Positions 15,691-28,995 of a stretch of DNA of 33,761 nucleotides are shown here, in pieces; position 1 is the stretch's first letter, and each line of letters starts with the position of its first letter. Both the position numbers and the translations under genes were made by a program. A model generated the notes under the pieces. That model was given only the letters and a program-made list of their open reading frames with translations. It ran no database searches and had not been told where the DNA came from. The stretch is taken from assembly GCA_000994815.1 (NCBI GenBank), contig LCJU01000004.1, positions 1 to 33,761 on the forward strand. The letters run 5' to 3'. The DNA comes from a candidate division WWE3 bacterium GW2011_GWC2_44_9 (GTDB taxonomy: Bacteria; Patescibacteriota; WWE3; UBA101185; UBA10185).

Positions 15691-16099
15691 AACAATTTCA
15701 GAGCTTAAGCCGGTTTGGTATTTGGTTGACGCTAAAGATAAAATATTGGGCCGGATTGCCGTTGAGGTTGCGGATAAACTGAATGGCAAGAATTTGCCGG
15801 GCATATCTCCTAATCAGTATTGCCAAAGCAAAGTCGTGGTTATCAATACCAATCAAGTAAAAACCACCGGCAACAAGCTAACCAACAAGGTTTATATCCA
15901 TCATACTGGTTTTCCAAAAGGCCTTAGGTCTGTTACCTTAGGTGAAGCTATGCAAAAAGACTCCACCGAGGTTTTTCGAAAGGCCGTTAAGGGTATGCTG
16001 CCCAAGAACAAATTGCAAAAAAAGAAAATGGCCGGGCTTTTTGTATACAAGGATGCTGATCACGAGCACAGGGCAAATTTTGGAAAGGTGGCCAAGTAA
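15671..16099 (+). CDS. rplM: 50S ribosomal protein L13
   Basis: WYLVDAKDKILGRIAVEVADKL...HHTGFPKGLR. 20-nt overlap with rplQ. Confidence 0.95.
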   Translation: MQKTKFKTISELKPVWYLVDAKDKILGRIAVEVADKLNGKNLPGISPNQYCQSKVVVINTNQVKTTGNKLTNKVYIHHTGFPKGLRSVTLGEAMQKDSTEVFRKAVKGMLPKNKLQKKKMAGLFVYKDADHEHRANFGKVAK

Positions 16100-16494
16100 T
16101 GGAGACTATTTACGCCGTTGGAAGGCGAAAGACTGCGGTGGCCTCCATTTTCCTAAAAAAGGAAAAGGGCAAGATTTTGGTTAACGCTAAACCTATAGCA
16201 GACTACTTCCCAACTGAAGAAAGCAGGTCCAAATGGATGAAGCCCTTTTTTGCTATAGGTATTTCTAATCCAGAGCTGACTTATTCTGGTACCATAAAAG
16301 TTGTTGGTTCAGGTACAACCGGCCAGCTTGGTGCAGTTATTCATTGTCTAGCCCGGGCCTTATGCCAAACTTTGCCAGAATCGGCGGGCGTTCTTAGAAA
16401 GCAGGGACTTTTAACCAGAGACTCCCGAATGGTCGAAAGAAAGAAGCCCTATCTTAGGAAAGCCAGAAAAGCCCCCCAGTACTCAAAGAGGTAG
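16099..16494 (+). CDS. rpsI: 30S ribosomal protein S9
   Basis: YAVGRRKTAVASIFL...RDSRMVERKKPYLRKARKAPQYSKR. TAATG overlap with rplM. Confidence 0.96.
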   Translation: METIYAVGRRKTAVASIFLKKEKGKILVNAKPIADYFPTEESRSKWMKPFFAIGISNPELTYSGTIKVVGSGTTGQLGAVIHCLARALCQTLPESAGVLRKQGLLTRDSRMVERKKPYLRKARKAPQYSKR

Positions 16495-16788
16495 TTACAC
16501 TATTCTCTCCGAGGAAAAAGTCTGAGCAAGCAGTGTTTTCAGCTGTACAAAAGAGTTTTCTAGCTGGCTTATCTTTTCCCGTAAATCATTTCTATTTTCA
16601 CTAGGAAACTCCATAAAATTAACGTTATACTCGTCCGCAATATGCTTGAGTATTTTTATTGATGGCACACACCGCCCCGTTTCATACGCAGAGATGCTTT
16701 TTGCCGATATGCCGATCTTTTTGCCAAACCTTTCCTGCGAAAGTTTCAGTCTATACCTCACATTCCTAATTTGTTCACACACAAACAT
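16495..16788 (-). CDS. XRE-family helix-turn-helix transcriptional regulator (SinR-like size and layout)
   Basis: IRNVRYRLKLSQERFGKKIGISAKSISAYETGRCVPSIKILKHIADEY is a classic HTH_3 domain, followed by a helical tail. ATG 16788 is preceded by GGAAAGGCGG. The longest ORF would start at 16830, which has no SD. The stop abuts the rpsI stop (convergent). Confidence 0.8.
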   Translation of the reverse strand: MFVCEQIRNVRYRLKLSQERFGKKIGISAKSISAYETGRCVPSIKILKHIADEYNVNFMEFPSENRNDLREKISQLENSFVQLKTLLAQTFSSERIV

Positions 16789-16833
16789 AACCGCCTTTCC
16801 GGACAGGAATCTTATAAAAATAGAGTACATATG

Positions 16834-16862
16834 TTGATATGTATATTGTTACTAACTATATT
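16834..16862 (+). promoter_or_regulatory. Sigma-70-like promoter for the TasA-like/SipW/Hsp100 genes
   Basis: TTGATA (16834-16839), 17-nt spacer, TATATT (16857-16862). A strong SD, AAAGGAGGTG, lies 6 nt before ATG 16906. Confidence 0.5.
16843..16861. promoter_or_regulatory. 19-bp interrupted palindrome, candidate operator
   Basis: ATATtGTTAcTAACtATAT. Sixteen of 19 positions are self-complementary (ATAT-n-GTTA-n-TAAC-n-ATAT). It spans the spacer and -10 boxes of both candidate promoters. Confidence 0.4.
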
Positions 16863-16884
16863 ATAACCACAGATATAATAGCAA
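16855..16884 (-). promoter_or_regulatory. Candidate divergent promoter for the XRE gene
   Basis: On the minus strand: TTGCTA (16884-16879), 18-nt spacer, TATAGT (16860-16855). Its -10 box overlaps the -10 box of the plus-strand promoter. Confidence 0.3.
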
Positions 16885-16905
16885 TATGAAAGGAGGTGAA
16901 AAACT

Positions 16906-17490
16906 ATGAAAATCCGCAGATATTTGTTAAGTGTTGTGCCCTTGTTTGTTATCGGTTCAGCGGCTATAAGTGTTGCGTATGCGTCTTTTACCGATCAAAC
17001 AAAGTTCGCAGGTTCGAGATTTAGTGTGGGAAGTGCTGATCTTAAGCTGGTAAACAATTTAGCGGGTGGTGTTGAATCGGGCAATTTAGTGGATGATAAG
17101 CCGGCTCCTACATATGATGGTATCTATTCTCTATGGACTGCTGACTATCTTGTAAAGCTGGTAAACAATGGTAATCAAGTAGTTAACTTGACATCAAATA
17201 TGGACTACCTAACTGCAAACGATCCCGGTAATATAAGAGAAGTGCTTTACGTTGAGCCTATTGATTGGACCGACGCGAACGGCAACGGTGAGGCCGAAGC
17301 TGACGAGCTAGGCACCTCGGCTGGCAAAAAAGCCTTTACTTCCTGGAAATCCACCGGCTACGATTTTGGTAACCTTGCTCCGGGTCAAGTAAAAGGTTAT
17401 GTTATGAGATTCTCGGCTGGCACTCTCACTAATGCCAAGATGGGTCAAACGGGTATATACGACTTTGTGTTCGATGCCGTAGGGTTGTGA
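16906..17490 (+). CDS. Secreted TasA/camelysin-superfamily protein with a SipW-cognate-type signal peptide
   Basis: The N-terminus MKIRRYLLSVVPLFVIGSAAISVAYASFTDQTKFAGSRFSVGSADLKL resembles B. subtilis TasA ...GGGTWAAFNDIKSKDATFASGTLDLS (recalled from memory). 194 aa, beta-rich. Directly followed by a SipW-type peptidase. Confidence 0.7.
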   Translation: MKIRRYLLSVVPLFVIGSAAISVAYASFTDQTKFAGSRFSVGSADLKLVNNLAGGVESGNLVDDKPAPTYDGIYSLWTADYLVKLVNNGNQVVNLTSNMDYLTANDPGNIREVLYVEPIDWTDANGNGEAEADELGTSAGKKAFTSWKSTGYDFGNLAPGQVKGYVMRFSAGTLTNAKMGQTGIYDFVFDAVGL

Positions 17491-18023
17491 ATTCAAGAGA
17501 TCCTGCCCACATAATTATGAGTTGTTGCATGTCAAAAGGCGCCATCAAGCTAGTCTTTTTAACAGTAACGCTAGGTGTTGTATGCACGCTTTGCGTGTAC
17601 TTTAACGTAAGAGTTTTTTTTATCAAAACTGGTTCTATGGAGCCTGGCATTGCACGCGGCTCACTTGTCTTTACTTACCGGAGTTTTGTCGATATTGCCA
17701 GTGGGGAAGTCGTTGTCTTTTTTGACTCTCGGTTAAACACGCCCGTGGCTCACCGGGTGCTAGCTATACACAAACAGCCAACTAGCCATTTTATTACTAA
17801 GGGTGACACCAACACTAGCGCGGACACCGGCAAAGTCTACCAAGGCGATGTCATTGGCAAGGTTTTTGCCGTTGTTGAAGCGCCAAGTATATATCAGCTG
17901 TTTACGGCGGTGTTGGGCTTTTGTCTATTTTACTTATTGGGTGTTACTCTTAAGGGATTTTTGCTATCCTTAAGAAAACATGACTATTCCTGTCCGTCCT
18001 CAGCACATAACCAGATTTATTGA
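17487..18023 (+). CDS. Signal peptidase I, ER/archaeal (S26B, SipW-like) type
   Basis: An N-terminal TM is followed by the boxes TGSMEPGI, PVAHRV and ITKGDTNTSAD, then a C-terminal TM (LFTAVLGFCLFYLLGV). The GTG start overlaps the upstream stop (GTGA). ATG 17517 or 17529 are alternative starts. Confidence 0.8.
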   Translation: MNSRDPAHIIMSCCMSKGAIKLVFLTVTLGVVCTLCVYFNVRVFFIKTGSMEPGIARGSLVFTYRSFVDIASGEVVVFFDSRLNTPVAHRVLAIHKQPTSHFITKGDTNTSADTGKVYQGDVIGKVFAVVEAPSIYQLFTAVLGFCLFYLLGVTLKGFLLSLRKHDYSCPSSAHNQIY

Positions 18024-20496
18024 GTTTATCTTTTTAGGCGCGCCAAAGAAGCTTTTTATCATCGGTAAAAGACTTATTGCGCTCACCAACTATGAGCTCT
18101 CGTTCACGCTCAATTTGAGGCTAATCTTAATCCCGCTTTTCGGCGATTATACTAGGGTTGGCAGGGCAATTGGTGTTGTTGTTAGGCTGCTTTGTATCTT
18201 ATCTGGGTTGGTTGCTTTAGCCTTGCTTTCCCTCGTTGTCTTTCTTTTACCGATTCTTTGGTACTTTGCGCTTTTTGGTCTGATCTACGGTTTGGGGGGA
18301 TTTTCGCTTGCGGTCGGTTTAGTTTTTTTTGGCATGTGGTATCTGTCAGTCAAAAACAAACCCTTTGCTTCAGGCCAGCCCCGGCCATATGTGGCCGATC
18401 TTTTTAGAGATTTGGCTATTAGGGGCAATATTCAACTTAAGGACTTTTTGGCAAGCCCGCATGTGTTGGAAATGTGCGTACGGCTTGAGCTTTCTGGATC
18501 GGAGTTTCCGCTTGCCATCTTGAACAGTTTATCGTATCAGCAGGTGGTGGCCTCACACAAGGCTTGGGAAAGTAAAGCATACGGCTACATGCAGGATTTT
18601 GGCAATTTGTATGTGGAGCCCGAGCATGTCTTTTTGGCGATAGTATCAAGTTTATCTGGTGTAGACAGGCTGCTAAGCAAGTACGGCTTAGCTAAGAGGG
18701 ATGAAAAAGCTACAGCCCATGTGTGGCAGGCATATTACAAACTACCGGCAATGGGCGGCATCGGTAAGGGTTCTACCGGCAGAGTAACTCCTGGTTTGGA
18801 CCAGGTTTCTACCGATTATACCCGACTGGTTAAAGAGGGTTTGGTAGAAAGAACTTACTGGCGTAAGGACGAAATAAAACGGGTGGCGGACTTGCTAGGT
18901 GGGTCTAACAGGAATGTGCTGGTTGTGGGTCCACCCGGGTGCGGCAAGACGGGCATTATCAAAGGTATCGCTTACAGCGTAATCAAGGGTACGGAATATG
19001 ACCACCTAAAGTTTAAACGCATTGTGAGTTTAGAAGTCGGTAAAATTCTGGCGGGGACAAAGGGCGGTGGTGATGTTGCAGACAAACTCAAAAAAGCGTT
19101 GGAAGATGCCTTAGGTTCCGGCGATGTTATTTTATTTGTTGACGATATCCATACTTTGGTGGCAGGGTCATCAGCTGAAGATAGTCGCACGAGTATAGCT
19201 TACACCACACTGGTTAACTATCTCTCAAACGGTCGGTTGCAGTTTATTGGAGCTACCAATGTGGAGAATTACCGTAAGTACATTGAGCCAAACGGGTCGT
19301 TTGCCCAGATGTTTCAGGTTGTTGAGGTTCCGGCCTCTTCCAAGCCCGAAACGCTGGAAATTATTAAAACCAAAGCCCGAAACTCGGAAGAGGAATTTAA
19401 GGTTTTTGTAACTTTTTGCGCTCTCCGTAAAATTGTGGAACTTGGAGATAAACTCATTCACGAAAGGGTGTTTCCCGACAAAGCGGTGGACATACTAAAT
19501 CGGTGCGTTGCCAAGGTGCATAAGGATTCGCGCATTGTTAACACTAGTGTGGTTTTGGAGGTACTGTCCGAAGTTACACACATTCCGGTGACGGCTGTTT
19601 CGCAGGAGGAGTCACAGAAATTACTAAATATTGAAGCAGAAATGAAAAAGCGGGTGATTGGTCAGGATGAGGCGGTTGCCATGGTTGGATCGGCGCTAAA
19701 AAGGGCGCGGGCCGGGATACGAAACGAGAGCAAACCTATCGCCAGCTTTTTGTTTGTGGGGACAACTGGAGTAGGCAAAACAGAAACCGCTAAGGCCTTG
19801 GCCCGATGCTACTTTGGCGACGAAAAACTCATGATTCGACTGGATATGAGCGAGTATCAGCAAAAAGATAGCTTATCGCGGCTGCTAGGTGATCCAAACG
19901 GGTCATCAAAGGGCATTCTAATTGAGGCGGTGAGAACCAGGCCGTTCTCGTTGATCCTTTTGGACGAAATCGAGAAGGCGCATCAGGATATTTTATTGAC
20001 TTTTTTGCAGGTGCTGGATGATGGTAGGTTAACCGATTCTTCAGGCTTTACGGCAAACTTTACCAATACGATACTAATTGCTACTAGCAACGTTGGTACC
20101 AGGTCAATTCAGGCAATTTTTGCCAGAAACGGAACTTTTGAAGAGATGAAGGATACGGTTATAAGGGAAGTTAGGGAAAAGTTTGCGCCGGAGTTTCTAA
20201 ATAGATTTACTGGGATTGTTGTGTACAAGCCGTTAAATATGGAATCAGTGCGAAGGATTACGGATATTATGTTGGGCAGCGTGCGAAAGATGGCCGACGA
20301 TAAGGGTATCAAGCTTAGCTTTAAGCCGGAGCTTGTTGAGGAGCTGCTTAAGCGAGGTTATTCGCCAGAATGGGGTGCGCGGCCTATGGCTAGGGTTATT
20401 GAAGAAACGGTTATGAATTATCTATCCATCAAGATCCTTTCCCACGAGGTTGTCCGCGGCGATGCTATTGAGCTTGGGGCAGAGGTTTTTCGTTAA
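17980..20496 (+). CDS. Membrane-anchored class-I (two-ring) Clp/Hsp100 AAA+ ATPase; ClpA-like linker, no M-domain, no ClpP-docking tripeptide
   Basis: D1 has Walker A VVGPPGCGKTG and Walker B ILFVDDIH. D2 has Walker A FLFVGTTGVGKTE, Walker B LILLDEIEKAH, LQVLDDGRLTD and sensor-2 GARP. A Clp_N-like segment reads EHVFLAIVSSLSGVDRLLSKYGL. A ~60-aa hydrophobic stretch covers aa 63-122. The start is uncertain because it overlaps the peptidase ORF by 44 nt. Confidence 0.85.
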   Translation: MTIPVRPQHITRFIEFIFLGAPKKLFIIGKRLIALTNYELSFTLNLRLILIPLFGDYTRVGRAIGVVVRLLCILSGLVALALLSLVVFLLPILWYFALFGLIYGLGGFSLAVGLVFFGMWYLSVKNKPFASGQPRPYVADLFRDLAIRGNIQLKDFLASPHVLEMCVRLELSGSEFPLAILNSLSYQQVVASHKAWESKAYGYMQDFGNLYVEPEHVFLAIVSSLSGVDRLLSKYGLAKRDEKATAHVWQAYYKLPAMGGIGKGSTGRVTPGLDQVSTDYTRLVKEGLVERTYWRKDEIKRVADLLGGSNRNVLVVGPPGCGKTGIIKGIAYSVIKGTEYDHLKFKRIVSLEVGKILAGTKGGGDVADKLKKALEDALGSGDVILFVDDIHTLVAGSSAEDSRTSIAYTTLVNYLSNGRLQFIGATNVENYRKYIEPNGSFAQMFQVVEVPASSKPETLEIIKTKARNSEEEFKVFVTFCALRKIVELGDKLIHERVFPDKAVDILNRCVAKVHKDSRIVNTSVVLEVLSEVTHIPVTAVSQEESQKLLNIEAEMKKRVIGQDEAVAMVGSALKRARAGIRNESKPIASFLFVGTTGVGKTETAKALARCYFGDEKLMIRLDMSEYQQKDSLSRLLGDPNGSSKGILIEAVRTRPFSLILLDEIEKAHQDILLTFLQVLDDGRLTDSSGFTANFTNTILIATSNVGTRSIQAIFARNGTFEEMKDTVIREVREKFAPEFLNRFTGIVVYKPLNMESVRRITDIMLGSVRKMADDKGIKLSFKPELVEELLKRGYSPEWGARPMARVIEETVMNYLSIKILSHEVVRGDAIELGAEVFR

Positions 20497-21013
20497 AAGG
20501 TTTTTTTTGCCAAAATAGTCCCTGTTGAGCGGGCACTTTGTCCACTTGCTTTCTTAGTTTTTGGTAGGCTGTCCAGCGACCCATGCGGGCAAAAAGTTCC
20601 AATTCGAGGCTAATCTTAGTTACCGGGATACTAAGGGTTCCTATTTGTACATGCGTGATAGAGTCGGCATCTGCGACGTACATCTTGCTCCAAGTTTGCT
20701 TAGCATCAAGTATTTGCCAATCGCCCATGATTTCTACGCCTATACCTTCAATAAGAAATTTACCGTAGTACGATTTAAACTTCGCTGACTCCTTATAGTC
20801 AACCTTTTCCACCAAGTAGCCAGCTAGTTTAGTGTTTGTTAAAAGAGCGGTTTCCTTGTCGCACAAAATGTCTATGTCATCAACGTTCATGTCCAATCCC
20901 TGCAGGACCAAACTCGCCGTTCCCCTAACGGCGTACTCACAACCGGCCAGATGTTGGGCAATGATACTAACTACACTATTTAGCTCATCTTTGGTTATAT
21001 TCGTACCCTTATT
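20465..21013 (-). CDS. Nucleotidyltransferase-fold protein (Pol-beta superfamily, Lnu/ANT-like); no canonical start codon upstream of the catalytic motif
   Basis: The open frame reads NKGTNITKDELNSVVSIIAQHLAGCEYAVRGTASLVLQGLDMNVDDIDILCDKE..., i.e. the hG[ST]...DhDh NTase signature. The only ATG/GTG/TTG start in frame is TTG at 20911 (track ORF 20465..20911), which lies downstream of the G[ST] motif. The 3' end overlaps the convergent Hsp100 gene by 32 nt. Confidence 0.6.
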   Translation of the reverse strand, partial: NKGTNITKDELNSVVSIIAQHLAGCEYAVRGTASLVLQGLDMNVDDIDILCDKETALLTNTKLAGYLVEKVDYKESAKFKSYYGKFLIEGIGVEIMGDWQILDAKQTWSKMYVADADSITHVQIGTLSIPVTKISLELELFARMGRWTAYQKLRKQVDKVPAQQGLFWQKKPFNEKPLPQAQ

Positions 21014-21244
21014 TTAGCGGATAGTCGTATTAGTGCGAATTCCGAGGTTTGGCAAGCTGAATTAGCGCTAATTTAGCCGTTCGGACAGCGCAATTAACAT
21101 ATTTAGTATCATGCGGTTGAGAGTGGGGCCGTATTTATTGTGACGACTATAAATACTATAGTAACGGCAAATGCAGAAGATTCGCTTTGAAAAACACCAC
21201 CTAGTAAACCTTCTGAAGTATATCTTTATAATTCGAACGTAAAA

Positions 21245-21297
21245 CTACCGGTGTAAACTGGTAGATATAAGCTGGTGGTTGTTGATTACACCAGTAG
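21245..21297 (-). terminator. Terminator-like hairpin after the DUF6624-like gene
   Basis: Minus-strand RNA: CUACUGGUGUAA, 29-nt loop, UUACACCGGUAG, then UUUU. The stem is 12 bp with one G:U pair and starts 18 nt after the stop. The loop is atypically long. Confidence 0.3.
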
Positions 21298-21314
21298 ATA
21301 TATAGGTGAAGCAG

Positions 21315-21857
21315 CTACTTGGGTTTGCCCTTTATAAAATTATTAAATGTCTCTTCGGACACCTTAATATAATCGGCTAACGGGGGCAAGCCATATTTCT
21401 GCCTTCTTTTGTCAACATTTTTATCATCCTCTATTGGCAATGGTTTTGTAACAAATTTGCCTTTCTTATCTTTTTTAGTTGTAACAACCGTACCAAAGCA
21501 TTGTTTTTTACCTTTAAACAACAGAATTCTATCCTTTAGAATAGCAAGGTCGGTTTTATTGTAGTCTACTCTCCTAAATTCGGGGGTATTTGATAGTGTG
21601 CTTACATAGCTCATATCGGAGGTGTGGATAAGGAGCACTATAAAGTATCTGGCAGCTTCTACTCCAACATTTTCAGGTGTAGGTAATCCAAATTTGTCTA
21701 CTAAAGCTTTTATAACGTCGGTGGAGATGTGGTCGAATTTTTGCATTAAAGTTTCGCTAAAGATTTTGTTTTTTCGTAACCCCTGGTCCACGGCGATAAG
21801 GTTACTGAGTAATGTTGCAATGTTATTATCCATATTGCACTGCAAAATATAACACAC
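21315..21857 (-). CDS. Hypothetical protein, DUF6624-like
   Basis: ...ARYFIVLLIHTSD...LAILKDRILLFKGKKQCFGTVV...PLPIEDDKNVDKRRQKYGLPPLADYI matches my recollection of the DUF6624 pattern (..QH.D...EDRV....GK.Q.YG.....P.ed..nVDkRR...GL.PL.eY). ATG 21833 (MDNNIATLL) is an alternative start. Confidence 0.5.
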   Translation of the reverse strand: MCYILQCNMDNNIATLLSNLIAVDQGLRKNKIFSETLMQKFDHISTDVIKALVDKFGLPTPENVGVEAARYFIVLLIHTSDMSYVSTLSNTPEFRRVDYNKTDLAILKDRILLFKGKKQCFGTVVTTKKDKKGKFVTKPLPIEDDKNVDKRRQKYGLPPLADYIKVSEETFNNFIKGKPK

Positions 21858-21912
21858 ATTGCTACGCCACGGATATAGGCTTGATCTGCCGATCTGCAGC
21901 GTAGCAACATAA

Positions 21913-22464
21913 CTAGCAAGATAACACTTCCGCTATTACTTTGCTGATTTCGTAGCCGCACCCTCTTTGGACAAACAACCACGCCCCGCATGGATTGCTT
22001 TCGAGAAAATAGTATGTACCGTCTTTAGCTAGGATGAAGTCCATTGCGCTGAACCTCAGACCAAAGCCTTTGACTAGCTCCACACACTTCCAAGATAGAT
22101 CTGCGGGTAGCTCGTGCTTTTTAAACACCAGCTCGCCTGCTGGCCCATAACGATAGTCGACATCACCAGCCTTACTTCCGATTTGTTGGATTGACATTGA
22201 GAACACCTTATCCTCAAGAACAACCGTTCTTATGTCAAACGCCCTTTCTATCTCCTCCTGAAATATCGCGGGTGAGCTAGCAAGGAGAGTTAGATCGATA
22301 CTTGAAGCGGGGGATATTCTACTGGTAAATACCGCTCTTACCTTGTTCCCATCCTTCACGATGTGTTTTGCCAGCGGTTTCACTACCATATTTCCCCGCA
22401 ATTTGGCGCGAAATTCTTCTACTTCTGTTGCATCGGAAGTTACCAATGTCTGCGGTATGACCAT
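21913..22464 (-). CDS. ATP-grasp enzyme fragment (RimK / MvdD-graspetide-maturase-like) lacking the N-terminal domain
   Basis: GMVIPQTLVTSD...MVVKPL...PAIFQEEIERAFDIRTVVLEDKVF...DVDYRY...LPADLSWKCVELVKGFGLRFSAMDFILAKDGTYYFLESNPCGAWLF covers the central and C-terminal ATP-grasp subdomains. Only 183 aa. The frame is closed by a stop at 22549-22551. Confidence 0.65.
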   Translation of the reverse strand: MVIPQTLVTSDATEVEEFRAKLRGNMVVKPLAKHIVKDGNKVRAVFTSRISPASSIDLTLLASSPAIFQEEIERAFDIRTVVLEDKVFSMSIQQIGSKAGDVDYRYGPAGELVFKKHELPADLSWKCVELVKGFGLRFSAMDFILAKDGTYYFLESNPCGAWLFVQRGCGYEISKVIAEVLSC

Positions 22465-22602
22465 ACCCAGACTACTGGCAACCTCGAGTTGAAGTTGCTT
22501 ATTTGATATGAGATTAGGATTATTTCCAAACTGGGCTTGTTGATTAGATCAAATAGTCCCACACAAATGACTACCCCAGTATTTTTTGGTACAGTAAGCC
22601 CT

Positions 22603-23604
22603 ATGGAAGAACTAAAAACGCGGCTTACAGAACTTAGAAAAAAGCTAAATATTGAGCACAAGAGGGACGAAATTTCCGAGCTTAAAGTCAAAATGCAGGA
22701 CGACTCCGTGTGGCAAAACTGGGAAGAAGGCCAAAAACTTGCCAAACAGCTCGCCGAGCTCCAAAAAGAGGTCGATGATTTTGACATGCTCGAACTTATC
22801 GCGCAGGACCAAAAGCCCGAGGAGTTTGAACAGGCTTTGTGGGAAGTGGAGAAAAAAACCTATCTCTCAGAGCCACACGATCGGAGTGGGGCGATTTTGA
22901 CCGTCCATGCCGGTCAGGGTGGTACAGAGGCTATGGACTGGGCGGAGATGCTTTACCGTATGTACACGCGGTTTTGCGACAGAAAAAACTGGAATCATGC
23001 AATTCTCTCTTTTACCCCTGGCGATGAAGCTGGGTACAAGTCTATTTGTATTGAAGTATTGGGCACTTACGCTTATGGTTTCTTAAAACACGAATCGGGG
23101 GTGCACAGGCTGGTTAGGCAGTCGCCCTTTAACGCCAACGATCTTAGGCAGACCTCCTTTGCTTTAGTGGAAGTAATCCCTCTAGTAGATGATTCCATAG
23201 AGATAGAACTAAAAGATGACGACATTGAATTTGAGGCCTTTAGAAGTGGCGGCCACGGTGGACAAAACGTTAACAAAGTTTCCACAGCCGTTAGAATAAA
23301 ACACAAGCCCACGGGTATCATAGTAGAAAATCAAACCGAAAGATATCAAGGCAAAAATCGTGAAAAAGCCATGCAAGTGTTAAAGTCAAAATTATACGCG
23401 CTGGAACTAGAAAGAAAGGACGCCGAAAAAAGAAAACTTAAGGGCGACTATAAAGTACCCGGCTGGGGCAACCAAATTCGCAACTATATACTGCACCCTT
23501 ATAAATTGGTTAAGGACTTAAGAACGGACTTTGAGTCCACTAATCCGGAAAAAGTGCTAGATGGCGAACTCGACGAATTTATCGACGCCGAATTAAAGCT
23601 CTAG
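22603..23604 (+). CDS. prfB: Peptide chain release factor 2, single uninterrupted frame
   Basis: SPF tripeptide (VRQSPFNAN) and GGQ ([13 protein letters not shown]). [15 protein letters not shown]... from ATG 22603 matches the RF N-terminus. The track start at 22537 is probably over-extended. Confidence 0.93.
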
Positions 23605-25534: not shown

Positions 25535-26893
25535 ATGCGCAAAGACTTTTTAAAGCTGGGGTTAATAGTGGGGTTGTTTGTGGTGGCGGTGGTGGTTGCT
25601 ATGCCGGCTGTGCCGGTGAAACTGCCACGGCTTAATATTGATACAACAGTCGGTGGTTTGTACTTCAATTTGTTTAACGGCGCCTATGTTGTGGACTTGC
25701 GGGATATCAAACGCGGTTTGGATTTGCAGGGCGGTGTAAAGCTCACGCTTGAGGCCGACATGACAAAAATTGCGGATGGCGATAAAGATAAGGCGTTGGA
25801 TTCGGCCCAAGAAATTATTGCCAGAAGAGTAGATTTTTTGGGGGTGGCCGAGCCTAGGATCAATAGCGTAAAAGCTGGCAGTCAGTATCGAATTGAAGTC
25901 GAAATTCCCGGTATAGACGATGTTAAGTCTGCGGTTGATGCTATTGGTCACACTGCACAGTTAACGTTTAAAAAACTTCCTAGTACTGTCGAATGGTCAG
26001 AAGCTAAGCGCTTAGATTATTATCAGAACCCAAACATTTGGGAAGATACAGGCGTAACCGGGGCTGATCTTGTGGGAGCGGAGCCGGTTTTTTCCCAGGG
26101 AGCGTCTTTGGAATCAAAAACATCGCCTCAAATACAGTTAAGGTTTTCCGGCGAAGGTAGAAAGAAGTTCTCCGAGTTGGCGAAGCAGAATGTAGGAAAA
26201 CCCATAGCCCTTTTTCTTGATGATAGCCCGTATCCTATATCCATGCCAATAGTCGACCCTGACTTAGCCGGAGGCCTTACAGGAGATCCTGTTATCAACG
26301 GTTCTTTTGATATGAAAAGCGCTCGGGCGCTAAGTTTACAAATAAGAGCGGGCGCCTTGCCGGTGCCAATAAGCGTTTTAGAGCAAAAAACAGTTGGGGC
26401 AACGCTGGGCGCTGAATCTGTAACCAAAAGCTTAAAAGCGGGACTTATCGGGTTGGGTGTGGTGATGCTTTTTATGATTGTTATGTATCGGGAGCTTGGG
26501 TTGATTGCAGACTTTGGCTTGTTGTTGTATACGGCGCTGGTTATGGCTGTTTTTAAGCTTATTCCAGTGACGTTAACTTTGCCGGGTATTGCCGGCTTTA
26601 TATTGTCAATTGGTATGGCGGTAGACGCCAGCATTCTAGCCTTTGAAAGAATTTTGGAGGAAGTTAGGTGGGGTAAACCCAGAGGCGTAGCCTTAAAGCT
26701 TGGGTTTGAAAGGTCGTGGAATTCTATTAGAGACTCAAATATGTCATCTTTAATTACGGCTGCTGTGCTGTTTTATTTTGGTTCCGGTGTGGTGCGGGGT
26801 TTTGCACTTACATTGGGTATAGGTATTTTGGTATCGCTCTTCACATCTGTGTTTGTGGTTAGAACGGTTATTAAAACAGTGGGGCGCTTTTAG
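25535..26893 (+). CDS. secD: Protein translocase subunit SecD
   Basis: 452 aa. An N-terminal TM and periplasmic domain (LGLDLQGGV, RRVDFLGVAEPRI) are followed by six C-terminal TMs with LTLPGIAGFILSIGMAVDASILAFERI. Confidence 0.93.
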   Translation: MRKDFLKLGLIVGLFVVAVVVAMPAVPVKLPRLNIDTTVGGLYFNLFNGAYVVDLRDIKRGLDLQGGVKLTLEADMTKIADGDKDKALDSAQEIIARRVDFLGVAEPRINSVKAGSQYRIEVEIPGIDDVKSAVDAIGHTAQLTFKKLPSTVEWSEAKRLDYYQNPNIWEDTGVTGADLVGAEPVFSQGASLESKTSPQIQLRFSGEGRKKFSELAKQNVGKPIALFLDDSPYPISMPIVDPDLAGGLTGDPVINGSFDMKSARALSLQIRAGALPVPISVLEQKTVGATLGAESVTKSLKAGLIGLGVVMLFMIVMYRELGLIADFGLLLYTALVMAVFKLIPVTLTLPGIAGFILSIGMAVDASILAFERILEEVRWGKPRGVALKLGFERSWNSIRDSNMSSLITAAVLFYFGSGVVRGFALTLGIGILVSLFTSVFVVRTVIKTVGRF

Positions 26894-26902
26894 TCAGGCA
26901 CT

Positions 26903-27916
26903 ATGTCAAAAAAGGGTAAAAAAATTAAGAAAATCAATACCGTCAGTTTGCCCAAGCAGGAAAGCTTGCCAAGCAAAGAAAGTGGTCAAGTAGATAACGC
27001 GACTCAGGGTTACAACCTCATGAAACACAAAGCTAAATATCTGATCTTTAGCGCTTTGGTAATTCTGCCCGGGGCGTTTTTTCTTGGTTTTTGGGGCTTA
27101 AAAGTATCAATCGACTTTACGGGTGGTTCAGTATTTAGCTACACCAGAGCTGAGGGTGTATGGAACAGAGCTGAAGTGCAAGATGTTTTAGAAAAGGCCG
27201 GTGTAGAGATAATTGCTGTAGCACTGGAGGCAGGTGACAAAAACTTTACAGTAAGAACAAAATCAATTGATGCTAACGCAAATGAGGAGTTAAAGACCAT
27301 CATTCTTCAGACAGCCCCAACCGCTAAACAAATCGCTTTTGAAACCGTGGGTCCCACAATTGGGTCTGAAACAGCAAGAAAGAGCTTTATCGCCTTTGGC
27401 ATAGCCTGTATAGGCATTGTTTTGTATATTTCCTACGCTTTCCGCAACATTCCAAAGCCATATTCGGGTTTGCGGTTTGGTGTTAGTGCAATACTGGCCA
27501 TGATTCATGATGCTTTAGTCGTTTTGGGGGTATTTTCAATTCTGGGACACTTTAAAGGCGTGGAAATAGATTCCATGTTTATTACGGCCCTGCTTACCAT
27601 TATTGGCTTTTCCGTTCACGATACCATCGTAGTTTTCGACCGGATCCGTGAGAATTTAGGCAAGTTTAGAACCAAGGATTTTGAGTGGGTTGCCAACTAC
27701 TCAATCGTAGAAACCATGCGGCGGTCCATTGCCACGTCAACCACAGTTGTTATAACACTCACTGCTTTATTCATTTTTGGCGGGGTGTCAATAAAGTGGT
27801 TTGTTTTTGCCTTGCTCGTAGGCGTTATTTCAGGTACATACTCGTCCATATTCAATGCTACTCCCATTTTAATTATCTGGGAGGACTTTATAGCTAAGCG
27901 TGTTAAAAAATCTTAG
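26903..27916 (+). CDS. secF: Protein translocase subunit SecF (Lys-rich N-terminal extension)
   Basis: SIDFTGGS, GPTIGSE, ILAMIHDALVVLGVFSI and GFSVHDTIVVFDRIREN motifs; 337 aa. Confidence 0.93.
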   Translation: MSKKGKKIKKINTVSLPKQESLPSKESGQVDNATQGYNLMKHKAKYLIFSALVILPGAFFLGFWGLKVSIDFTGGSVFSYTRAEGVWNRAEVQDVLEKAGVEIIAVALEAGDKNFTVRTKSIDANANEELKTIILQTAPTAKQIAFETVGPTIGSETARKSFIAFGIACIGIVLYISYAFRNIPKPYSGLRFGVSAILAMIHDALVVLGVFSILGHFKGVEIDSMFITALLTIIGFSVHDTIVVFDRIRENLGKFRTKDFEWVANYSIVETMRRSIATSTTVVITLTALFIFGGVSIKWFVFALLVGVISGTYSSIFNATPILIIWEDFIAKRVKKS

Positions 27917-27990: not shown

Positions 27991-28995
27991 CTATCGGGTT
28001 AAATAGAACCCAATCCCCCTCTTGTTTTTAATCATTAGGGGGATATTGTTATCGGCTAGTTTTTTACGCAAGCGTGATATTATTTGGTCAATAGATTCAT
28101 CGCTCACCCCAGAACCCTTGCTTTGTGGGCTTAATATTTCTGCCACGTCCTCTTTATGAGTTATAGTATCGAAATTGTTATGTAGTTTAGAAAATACCAG
28201 ATACTCATATTTTGTTAAGTAGCGCTGGGCTTCTTGTAGGGTTACTCCAGAGGTGTCTTCAGACCGGGTTTCACCTAAGTTTATGGTTTTTAGTGATTCC
28301 GCTAAGGATTTTCCCATTGCTATATTAACAACCATGTCCCGAATTATTCCGCCCTGCCCATTACAGGCTTTTAATACTGCTAACCTATCTTTGTTTGCCA
28401 ACCGTATGGCGTTTCTTTTAAGCTCGTCTTTTAGTACTCTTGAGCAATCCACATTATTCAGTGAGGGTAAAATCAGCTCAAACGGTGATATATTCAATAA
28501 CTGTTTTAGTTTATGCTTATCCAATTCTACACCGTGCTCATAACATAAAATGTAGCCTAGCTTGTACTTATATCTATCTCTTAGGGACCGTAGATATCGA
28601 GGCGCGCTTTCGTTGAAATCATTTAAGGCCTCCAAATGATCAAGAATAAAGTATACCGCCTTTCCCGATCCTGTTGTGTCAGCCAGCCATTGTTCTAGCG
28701 AACGTTGCTGTCTATTGTAACCTCTGATTGATTCGTTTAACAGGCTTATAAGCTTATCTGTATTACTGTTATAAATACTATTTAGGTCTGTATATATTAT
28801 GTTATGGACAAATTGGGCGAAATAGGTGGAAAATACTTTACTGGAATGACTAATATACCTTAAATATTTGCTTTCCCCGGCCCCACTTACCGCAGTTAAC
28901 CTAAAAACCTGCCCGTTTTTCATTAATGAGGCTAGTTGTTTTGTGGTTTCCTGCCGATATTGTGGGTATAAACCCTCCGGCTCTAACTCCAGCAT
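27991..28995 (-). CDS. Degenerate P-loop NTPase domain fused to a C-terminal OmpR/PhoB-type winged-helix DNA-binding domain
   Basis: N-terminal half: LTAVSGAGESKY (Walker-A-like, but without GK[ST]) and AVYFILDHLE (Walker-B-like). C-terminal part: LTKYEYLVFSKL...KEDVAEIL...SIDQIISRLRKKLADNNIPLMIKNKRGIGFYL, a trans_reg_C pattern. Confidence 0.6.
   Translation of the reverse strand: MLELEPEGLYPQYRQETTKQLASLMKNGQVFRLTAVSGAGESKYLRYISHSSKVFSTYFAQFVHNIIYTDLNSIYNSNTDKLISLLNESIRGYNRQQRSLEQWLADTTGSGKAVYFILDHLEALNDFNESAPRYLRSLRDRYKYKLGYILCYEHGVELDKHKLKQLLNISPFELILPSLNNVDCSRVLKDELKRNAIRLANKDRLAVLKACNGQGGIIRDMVVNIAMGKSLAESLKTINLGETRSEDTSGVTLQEAQRYLTKYEYLVFSKLHNNFDTITHKEDVAEILSPQSKGSGVSDESIDQIISRLRKKLADNNIPLMIKNKRGIGFYLTR

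Follow-up and report, generated by a model that had tools for sequence, protein, structure and literature searches.

A TasA-like protein, a SipW-like signal peptidase and a membrane-anchored Hsp100 ATPase share a conserved gene order in WWE3 bacteria

In the candidate division WWE3 bacterium GW2011_GWC2_44_9, genes for a TasA-like secreted protein and a SipW-like signal peptidase are followed by a gene for a membrane-anchored Clp/Hsp100 ATPase. The stretch analysed, here called the window, comprises 33,761 nucleotides (nt) of contig LCJU01000004.1. We lean towards the view that the TasA-SipW-kind pair and the WWE3-specific ATPase are neighbours through a long-standing gene order and not a demonstrated three-part machine. 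The pair itself is a credible, divergent member of a known module type, and we would read the ATPase as a lineage-specific factor with a general role in membrane proteostasis or remodelling.

The four open reading frames (ORFs) concerned lie at the coordinates and on the strands given by a first-pass annotation of this DNA, made from the letters of the sequence. The 44-nt overlap of the peptidase and Hsp100 ORFs that it reported is real, and the strings it quoted, SVAYASFTDQTKFAGSRFSVGSADLKL from the signal and cleavage region of the 194-amino-acid (aa) protein and GSMEP, AHRV and TKGDTN from the peptidase, are present in the window translations. The features are as follows.

16495..16830, minus strand: XRE-family helix-turn-helix (HTH) regulator ORF, 111 aa (HTH_3, HTH_19, HTH_31)
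16789..16905, no strand assigned: divergent control region (promoter-like site, degenerate palindrome, Shine-Dalgarno (SD) sequence)
16906..17490, plus strand: TasA-like secreted beta-sandwich, 194 aa (hydrophobic N-terminus, hhalign, hidden Markov model (HMM) matches of orthologues, AlphaFold2 (AF2) models)
17487..18023, plus strand: archaeal/endoplasmic reticulum (ER)-type (SipW-like, S26B) signal peptidase I ORF, 178 aa (TIGR02228)
17980..20496, plus strand: membrane-anchored Clp/Hsp100-like double-ring ATPase, 838 aa (AAA, AAA_lid_9, AAA_2, ClpB_D2-small)

Gene order around the TasA-like, SipW-like and Hsp100 genes

A scan of species-representative genomes returned 46 loci, labelled WWE3, Patescibacteria or (generically) Saccharibacteria, to which three metagenome contigs were added. 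The WWE3 and Patescibacteria labels of these related records agree with the genome of candidate phyla radiation (CPR) type suspected from the sequence. By homology mapping, the common order was rplM, rpsI, XRE (minus strand), radC, TasA-like, SipW-like (in some loci), transmembrane (TM) Hsp100, prfB and DUF3048, and this conserved order was common to about 46 WWE3-type species. The Hsp100 gene followed the TasA-like gene, with or without a SipW-like gene, in about 43 of 48 loci, with TasA-like identity down to 35%. Adjacency of the TasA-like and Hsp100 genes is therefore conserved in most of about 46 species, but RadC and prfB are equally close, and a SipW-like gene adjoins the TasA-like gene in 21 of 49 loci.

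Median gaps were 41.5 nt between the TasA-like and SipW-like genes, 12 nt between the SipW-like and Hsp100 genes and 44.5 nt between the Hsp100 gene and prfB, and RadC commonly overlapped the TasA-like gene. Tight gene overlap was considered as a sign of specific functional coupling and rejected, since the Hsp100-prfB and RadC-TasA-like junctions are equally tight. The radC gene (PF04002) lies between the XRE and TasA-like genes in most WWE3 relatives (for example L002 and L008-L048), and it has been lost from the window and its near clade (L001, L004-L007). In the window's clade, three minus-strand genes are inserted between the Hsp100 gene and prfB, which are 0-100 nt apart in most relatives.

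The Hsp100 gene was missing downstream of the TasA-like gene in L014, L038, L040, L041 and L047. In a rough neighbour-joining tree of rplM, rpsI and prfB, L038 and L047 formed a deep sister branch, and L040 and L041, which carry the TasA-like and SipW-like genes and no Hsp100 at the locus, were nested among lineages with all three genes. In L014 (7500-14513; metagenome-assembled genome labelled Nomurabacteria HK-STAS-PATE-46), infC, two PP2C-like genes and pheS replace Hsp100 and prfB after the TasA-like gene, and the part upstream of that gene matches L002 and L003; this locus marks either the breakpoint of a rearrangement or a chimeric assembly. TasA-like, SipW-like and TM-Hsp100 genes at about 61% identity also occur on L031 (JBAZEV010000237.1), a contig of 2.5 kb that was binned as 'Candidatus Bathyarchaeia archaeon' and is most likely a mis-binned WWE3 contig.

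The XRE, TasA-like, SipW-like and Hsp100 genes had been read as one dedicated extracellular-fibre system, in which the ATPase would serve assembly, quality control or retraction. Persistence of the Hsp100 adjacency down to such low TasA-like identity favours this, as do the overlapping ORFs of the near clade, which have no separate promoter-like site, and the lineage restriction of both the TasA-like protein and Hsp100. However, RadC and prfB are just as tightly linked in the same string, the nested L040 and L041 retain the TasA-like and SipW-like genes without Hsp100, and the adjacency is broken in L014. Furthermore, no AAA+ partners of known TasA/SipW systems are given in PMC9245690. We consider a single fibre system unlikely, and on the strength of RadC, prfB, L040 and L041 the assignment of Hsp100 to such a system was not upheld.

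Several observations nevertheless weigh against our preferred reading of the genes as neighbours by inheritance. In the window's clade the overlap between the SipW-like and Hsp100 ORFs measures 44-110 nt, and a scan of positions 16000-23000 showed no promoter-like site ahead of the Hsp100 gene; the two genes may accordingly be co-expressed, and hence have some functional link. In addition, both the TasA-like family and the Hsp100 membrane N-domain appear to be innovations peculiar to WWE3, placed side by side between housekeeping genes. The ATPase gene is probably co-transcribed with its neighbours, but such co-transcription is usual in the compact genomes of the CPR and is not in itself a sign of shared function. 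What would place Hsp100 in a fibre module is gene order within one lineage.

The TasA-like protein and its signal peptidase

The 194-aa protein contains a single N-terminal hydrophobic segment (residues 6-24) within a signal peptide of about residues 1-26 (16906-16983), with cleavage between AYA and SF and a mature domain at 16984-17487. At least 303 relatives share 35-68% identity with it, and a profile search with the family alignment returned only orthologues among the matches listed. The signal motif GV[AT]YA/[AS]F[TS]D (the slash marks cleavage) is shared across the family, together with one signal anchor. The N-terminal strand of the mature protein, SFTDQ..GSRFSVGSADLKL, is conserved, and the strand sequence is SFTDQTKFAGSRFSV. 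We read the protein as a secreted beta-sandwich specific to this lineage, with a signal that appears to be of SipW type, and the earlier description of such a protein directly upstream of the peptidase is supported.

Its relationship to TasA was assessed with family models, profile comparison and structure prediction. The window protein had no match at E<=1 to Pfam or NCBIfam models, including the SipW-cognate signal model TIGR04088, which matched 9 of 30 orthologues with a best score of 19.5 bits against a cut-off of 19. One orthologue of the 30 (P0002) passed PF12389 (Peptidase_M73), with 26.2 bits against 22.5 and over residues 4-50 only, and the TasA equivalog model gave 19 bits against a cut-off of 450. 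We also considered, and rejected, a role as a metalloprotease of camelysin type, as the PF12389 match is limited to the signal region and the sequence contains no HExxH. Homologues of PF12389 have been reported earlier in Patescibacteria (PMC9245690).

Comparison of the family profile by hhalign with a TasA-family profile of six sequences (B. subtilis TasA and five annotated Bacillus plasmid TasA-family proteins) gave a probability of 59% and an E-value of 9.1e-5 over about 100 columns (4-117 versus 5-112). The B. subtilis TasA sequence used was identical to PDB 8AUR over residues 28-261. The alignment extends about 90 residues into the mature domain, covering the KP.. and NNG[ST] strand motifs; against TasA alone the probability was 10.7%. 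AF2 models of the 194-aa protein were all-beta, with a predicted local distance difference test score (pLDDT) of 80-82. Foldseek returned weak matches to these models, with FimA at the top (E = 3e-4, TM-score 0.33-0.37) and AbpA also weakly matched (7ueg_A; query TM-score (TMq) 0.43, probability 0.97, E = 5e-3). No TasA structure was among the top 50 Foldseek matches of the full-length or mature models, and TM-scores did not exceed 0.43, which leaves the TasA fold without structural confirmation and tells against the TasA side of our reading. Sequence searches of the PDB with the protein or its profile gave chance-level matches alone (EF-hand, EapH1). Membership of the TasA superfamily is likely but unproven, and we hold it with moderate confidence. 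Of the first-pass assignment to the TasA family, the profile alignment and the PF12389 and TIGR04088 matches of orthologues speak in favour, but the window protein's own HMM results and the Foldseek search for TasA do not.

The mature domain contains an EF-hand/dockerin-like loop, WTDANGNGEAEADE, at 17266-17307, with the pattern W-x-D-x-N-x-N-G-x-x-D/E-x-x-E. Residues W121, D123, G128 and E134 of this loop are invariant in the family. It aligns to the EF hand of a calcium-dependent kinase, and weak SdrD_B matches were found in 8 of 30 orthologues. The alignment shows no counterpart in TasA of this DxNxNGxxDxxE loop, with its invariant D123, G128 and E134, a difference that fits an alternative in which the protein is a monomeric calcium-binding surface or secreted protein, such as an adhesin or wall-associated protein, that shares only the SipW-type signal, and in which the peptidase may serve several substrates encoded elsewhere. 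A monomer is also in line with the likeness of the family to TasA HMMs, which lies mainly in the signal peptide and the strands that come first, with the failure of Foldseek to retrieve TasA and with the lack of a TapA/AbpB-like partner encoded nearby. On the other hand, the hhalign alignment runs through about 90 residues of the mature domain and takes in the NxG[ST] strand motif, the best Foldseek matches, weak as they are, are donor-strand-exchange pilins and the TasA-superfamily pilin AbpA, and the N-terminal strand SFTDQ..GSRFSVGSADLKL is conserved. We give the monomeric protein a minor but appreciable chance of being correct.

The peptidase scored 69.7 bits on TIGR02228, above the cut-off of 51.85. 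Residues S50 (GSMEP), H89-R90 (AHRV), G106, D107, N109 and D113 were invariant in 21 of 21 orthologues, and hydrophobic segments at 19-37 and 142-160 correspond to N- and C-terminal membrane helices. With TIGR02228 passed and the catalytic Ser, His and Asp invariant in 21 orthologues, identification as an ER/archaeal-type signal peptidase I stands. Judged by these motifs, it is of the Ser/His (not Ser-Lys) type, like SipW and Sec11. It is not strictly a SipW orthologue, because the Bacillus SipW equivalog NF046067 scored 38.9 bits against a cut-off of 190. All 20 aligned orthologues begin at the equivalent of ORF residue M15, so the start is most likely ATG 17529, giving a protein of 164 aa. 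The ORFs of the two genes do overlap at the GTGA stop/start noted in the first annotation, but with a start at ATG 17529 this overlap is probably unused.

Wherever a SipW-like gene was present, it came immediately after the TasA-like one. The signal motif GV[AT]YAAF[ST]D is retained in most loci lacking the peptidase gene and is degraded only in L025, L038, L045 and L047, all four of which have no adjacent SipW-like gene. Such confinement of motif decay to SipW-less loci is the pattern predicted by a substrate/peptidase pair. No second protein with a SipW-type N-terminus was found within about 7 kb in any locus. The absence of a TapA-like component, noted from the window, thus extends to a TapA-like second substrate over the same distance in every locus.

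We propose that the 194-aa protein would be exported by Sec and that the neighbouring dedicated Ser/His archaeal-type peptidase would remove its signal peptide, cleaving behind AYA where P2' is occupied by Phe. The mature calcium-loop beta-sandwich is probably retained at the cell surface or close to it, where it would be a matrix, fibre or adhesion subunit. By analogy with the TasA/AbpA family, it could polymerise via its N-terminal strand.

The membrane-anchored Hsp100

The ATPase matched AAA_2 (E = 1e-49), AAA (4e-21), ClpB_D2-small at its C-terminus (5e-20) and AAA_lid_9. These modules, together with a two-helix membrane hairpin, bear out the double-ring Clp/Hsp100 ATPase with a membrane anchor that had been proposed. 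The ClpA model matched in one stretch (272-831), with 464 bits against a cut-off of 993, and the ClpB model aligned in two stretches with the middle missing, with 512 bits against 1232. The closest solved structures were B. subtilis ClpC (3j3t, E = 2e-125) and T. thermophilus ClpB (1qvr, E of about 1e-124). The main features of the protein are listed below.

18187-18243 and 18253-18351, plus strand: TM helices, residues 70-88 and about 92-124 (hydrophobicity)
18928-18954, 19051-19089 and 19129-19155, plus strand: first AAA+ module (D1), Walker A, degenerate pore loop and Walker B
19759-19785, 19885-19929 and 19954-19980, plus strand: second AAA+ module (D2), Walker A, degenerate pore loop and Walker B

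Residues 30-124 comprise a conserved N-terminal motif, NNELSFTLNLRLLFTPLFGDYT..GR, followed by the two-helix TM hairpin, which has an outside loop of just 3-5 or so residues and basic flanks on both sides. A single weak Clp_N repeat is present at residues 200-237 (E = 0.018); relative to its relatives, the window protein has a 13-residue deletion in this Clp_N-like region (around 18730). The Hsp100 N-domain was found in 32 representatives only among 1.84 billion cluster representatives, in every case at the N-terminus of a protein of about 830-866 aa or in a fragment. A word-indexed homology search with the N-domain returned one protein only and was uninformative. Our literature searches turned up no account of a membrane-anchored Hsp100 from Patescibacteria, nor of TasA systems in WWE3.

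Walker A and Walker B are conserved in both rings across 37 orthologues. The window D1 Walker B (19129-19155) reads DD, with Asp replacing the catalytic Glu, as in 6 of the 37. The D1 pore-loop tyrosine is replaced in all 37 orthologues by S, T, N, G, H or E (mostly S, T, N or G, and never an aromatic residue). In D2, the GYVG loop is shortened by four residues to DGSTKG[IV]L, and an aromatic residue occurs in 3 of 37. In L008 and L009 the entire D2 pore-loop segment is deleted (IDR--------LTSQ), indicating that the loop is dispensable in the WWE3 TM-Hsp100 family. No M-domain is present, with about 60 residues of the ClpC M-domain having no counterpart in the alignment. The ClpP-docking [LIV]-G-[FL] loop is also absent: ClpC KYVGF is opposite a gap, where the window reads SIQAIFARNGT. 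On this evidence the protein is a ClpC/ClpB-derived class I double-ring ATPase outside every described subclass, and apparently a real, undescribed variant. It had been called an unfoldase, a name that does not apply in the canonical sense because both pore-loop tyrosines are absent.

In the proposed mechanism, the two-helix hairpin would hold Hsp100 at the membrane, on its cytoplasmic face. Both nucleotide sites are kept; the M-domain, the loop for docking ClpP and the tyrosines of both pore loops have been lost. Most likely it acts on cytoplasmic or membrane-face clients in a non-canonical way, either non-threading or weakly gripping. A role as fibre unfoldase or in fibre retraction or assembly is mechanistically less likely, given that there is almost no external loop and that the pore-loop tyrosines are missing. 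These features add to the case against a single fibre system, in which the ATPase would have essentially no extracytoplasmic part and would lack the two tyrosines needed for canonical unfolding.

Two other roles would bring the ATPase closer to export. As HSP101 does in the Plasmodium PTEX translocon, it could act as an export-side motor that holds precursors, including the TasA-like protein, and feeds them to SecYEG. The membrane tether would place its rings on the cytoplasmic side, the block is flanked by secretion genes (secY in the ribosomal operon, secD and secF downstream), and PTEX HSP101 (6e10/6e11) is among its sequence relatives. However, the pore-loop tyrosines that drive threading by HSP101 and ClpB are missing from both rings (0 of 37 in D1), and proximity to secY and secDF is ordinary bacterial gene order; we regard an export motor as very improbable. 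Otherwise, the WWE3-specific, pore-loop-less TM-Hsp100 might be dedicated to export of the TasA-like protein together with SipW, for example by holding or releasing the precursor, or the signal peptide once cleaved, at the membrane; we think this decidedly unlikely. If true, an AAA+ component would form part of a system for making fibres or surface proteins. We know of no AAA+ component in any TasA system. A three-part system would therefore be new if true, and its current support is shared gene order.

Independently of how the genes relate, both parts of the locus are of interest. In the uncultivated, ultrasmall WWE3/Katanobacteria, the TasA-like protein, which is conserved, looks strongly expressed and comes with an archaeal-type peptidase of its own, offers a concrete candidate for a component of surface fibres or of adhesion. 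A membrane-anchored Hsp100 that has its ATP sites and lacks the pore-loop tyrosines, M-domain and ClpP loop fits no described Clp/Hsp100 functional class. Working out what TM-Hsp100 does would extend knowledge of a heavily studied ATPase family.

Control region, flanking genes and comparison with known systems

The cassette comes after a complete string of ribosomal-protein, secY, adk, map, infA, rpoA, rplQ, rplM and rpsI genes. It had been described as appended to the ribosomal super-operon, and it does adjoin that operon, but it is not transcriptionally appended because the opposite-strand XRE gene stands between them. The XRE protein matched HTH_3 (PF01381) with an E-value of 8.1e-10 (39 bits against 23), with HTH_19 and HTH_31 also above cut-off, and matched no SinR-specific model. 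Its gene is kept at the same place, on the minus strand directly after rpsI, in about 44 related loci. The proteins of relatives align from about residue 15, and an SD-like GAAAGG is located upstream of M15; the true start is most likely ATG 16788, giving a 97-aa protein, in keeping with the divergently transcribed XRE protein of about 100 aa first described.

This start leaves a divergent control region of 117 nt, which contains a promoter-like TTGATA (16834-16839) and TATATT (16857-16862) separated by N17. This was the best sigma-70-like match in 16000-23000 (10/12), against promoter-like counts that overall equalled the shuffled expectation. A degenerate palindrome lies at 16810-16824 and a strong SD, AAGGAGGTGA, at 16890-16899. 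The region shows 85% conservation across five near relatives, with the -10 hexamer and SD invariant and the TTGATA -35 element retained in four of the five. Near relatives carry a perfect palindrome, TTCTAGTGAAACTAGAA, of which the window version is degenerate. The shared promoter/palindrome region proposed earlier is thus present, with its palindrome better preserved in relatives. The palindrome would fit an XRE operator, and the promoter region that the divergent genes share is probably under the control of the XRE protein.

Three minus-strand genes lie between Hsp100 and prfB (20465-22464), encoding a 148-aa ORF, a DUF6624 protein and an ATP-grasp remnant. The 148-aa ORF is shared with L001 and L006 and overlaps the 3' end of the Hsp100 gene by 32 nt. 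The third, a 183-aa ORF (21913-22464, minus strand), matches only the C-terminal half (model positions of about 137-312) of ATP-grasp maturases of ribosomally synthesized and post-translationally modified peptides (TIGR04187, E = 8.5e-38; MvdC/MvdD). No N-terminal half is present upstream of it, where prfB starts about 70 nt away, and it looks like a truncated gene remnant. Further downstream are secD and secF (25535-27916, plus strand) and a 334-aa protein (27991-28995, minus strand) with a C-terminal OmpR-type winged-helix domain (Trans_reg_C) only. No Rfam families or tRNAs were found in the window.

The nearest known counterpart of the TasA-like/SipW pair is the Bacillus tapA-sipW-tasA operon with SinR. 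In both, a secreted beta-rich protein carries a SipW-type signal (A-x-A, Phe at P2', Asp at P4'), its gene adjoins that of a Ser/His archaeal/ER-type signal peptidase, and a small XRE-family HTH gene lies beside the operon. The window differs in that the subunit gene precedes the peptidase gene, TapA is absent, and the operon runs on into the Clp/Hsp100 gene and prfB. Its XRE protein has no SinR-specific match, and the mature domain is about 168 aa, compared with 234 aa in Bacillus TasA. The EF-hand-like loop further sets the protein apart from TasA, and PF12389 misses 29 of 30 family members.

Structurally, the archaeal bundling pilin AbpA (PDB 7ueg) and the chaperone-usher pilin FimA are the best, though weak, matches to the 194-aa model and are likewise beta-sandwiches. 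Subunits of AbpA and FimA polymerise by donor-strand exchange, whereas the 194-aa protein is known here from monomer models. TM-scores to them are 0.33-0.43, and an usher and a chaperone are absent.

Like ClpC, ClpB and ClpA, the window Hsp100 has two AAA+ modules with Walker A and B motifs, AAA_lid_9, ClpB_D2-small and a remnant Clp_N repeat. Unlike them, it adds an N-terminal motif and a two-helix membrane anchor, has no M-domain, [LIV]-G-[FL] ClpP loop or D1 tyrosine, and has its D2 GYVG deleted or replaced; it also falls far under the ClpB and ClpA equivalog cut-offs (512 versus 1232 and 464 versus 993 bits). The D1 ring of p97, the D2 ring of NSF and the torsins are ATP-binding rings that have no aromatic gripping residue and are not known to thread substrate. 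The window Hsp100 differs from these in that the aromatic residue is lacking in both rings of one protein.

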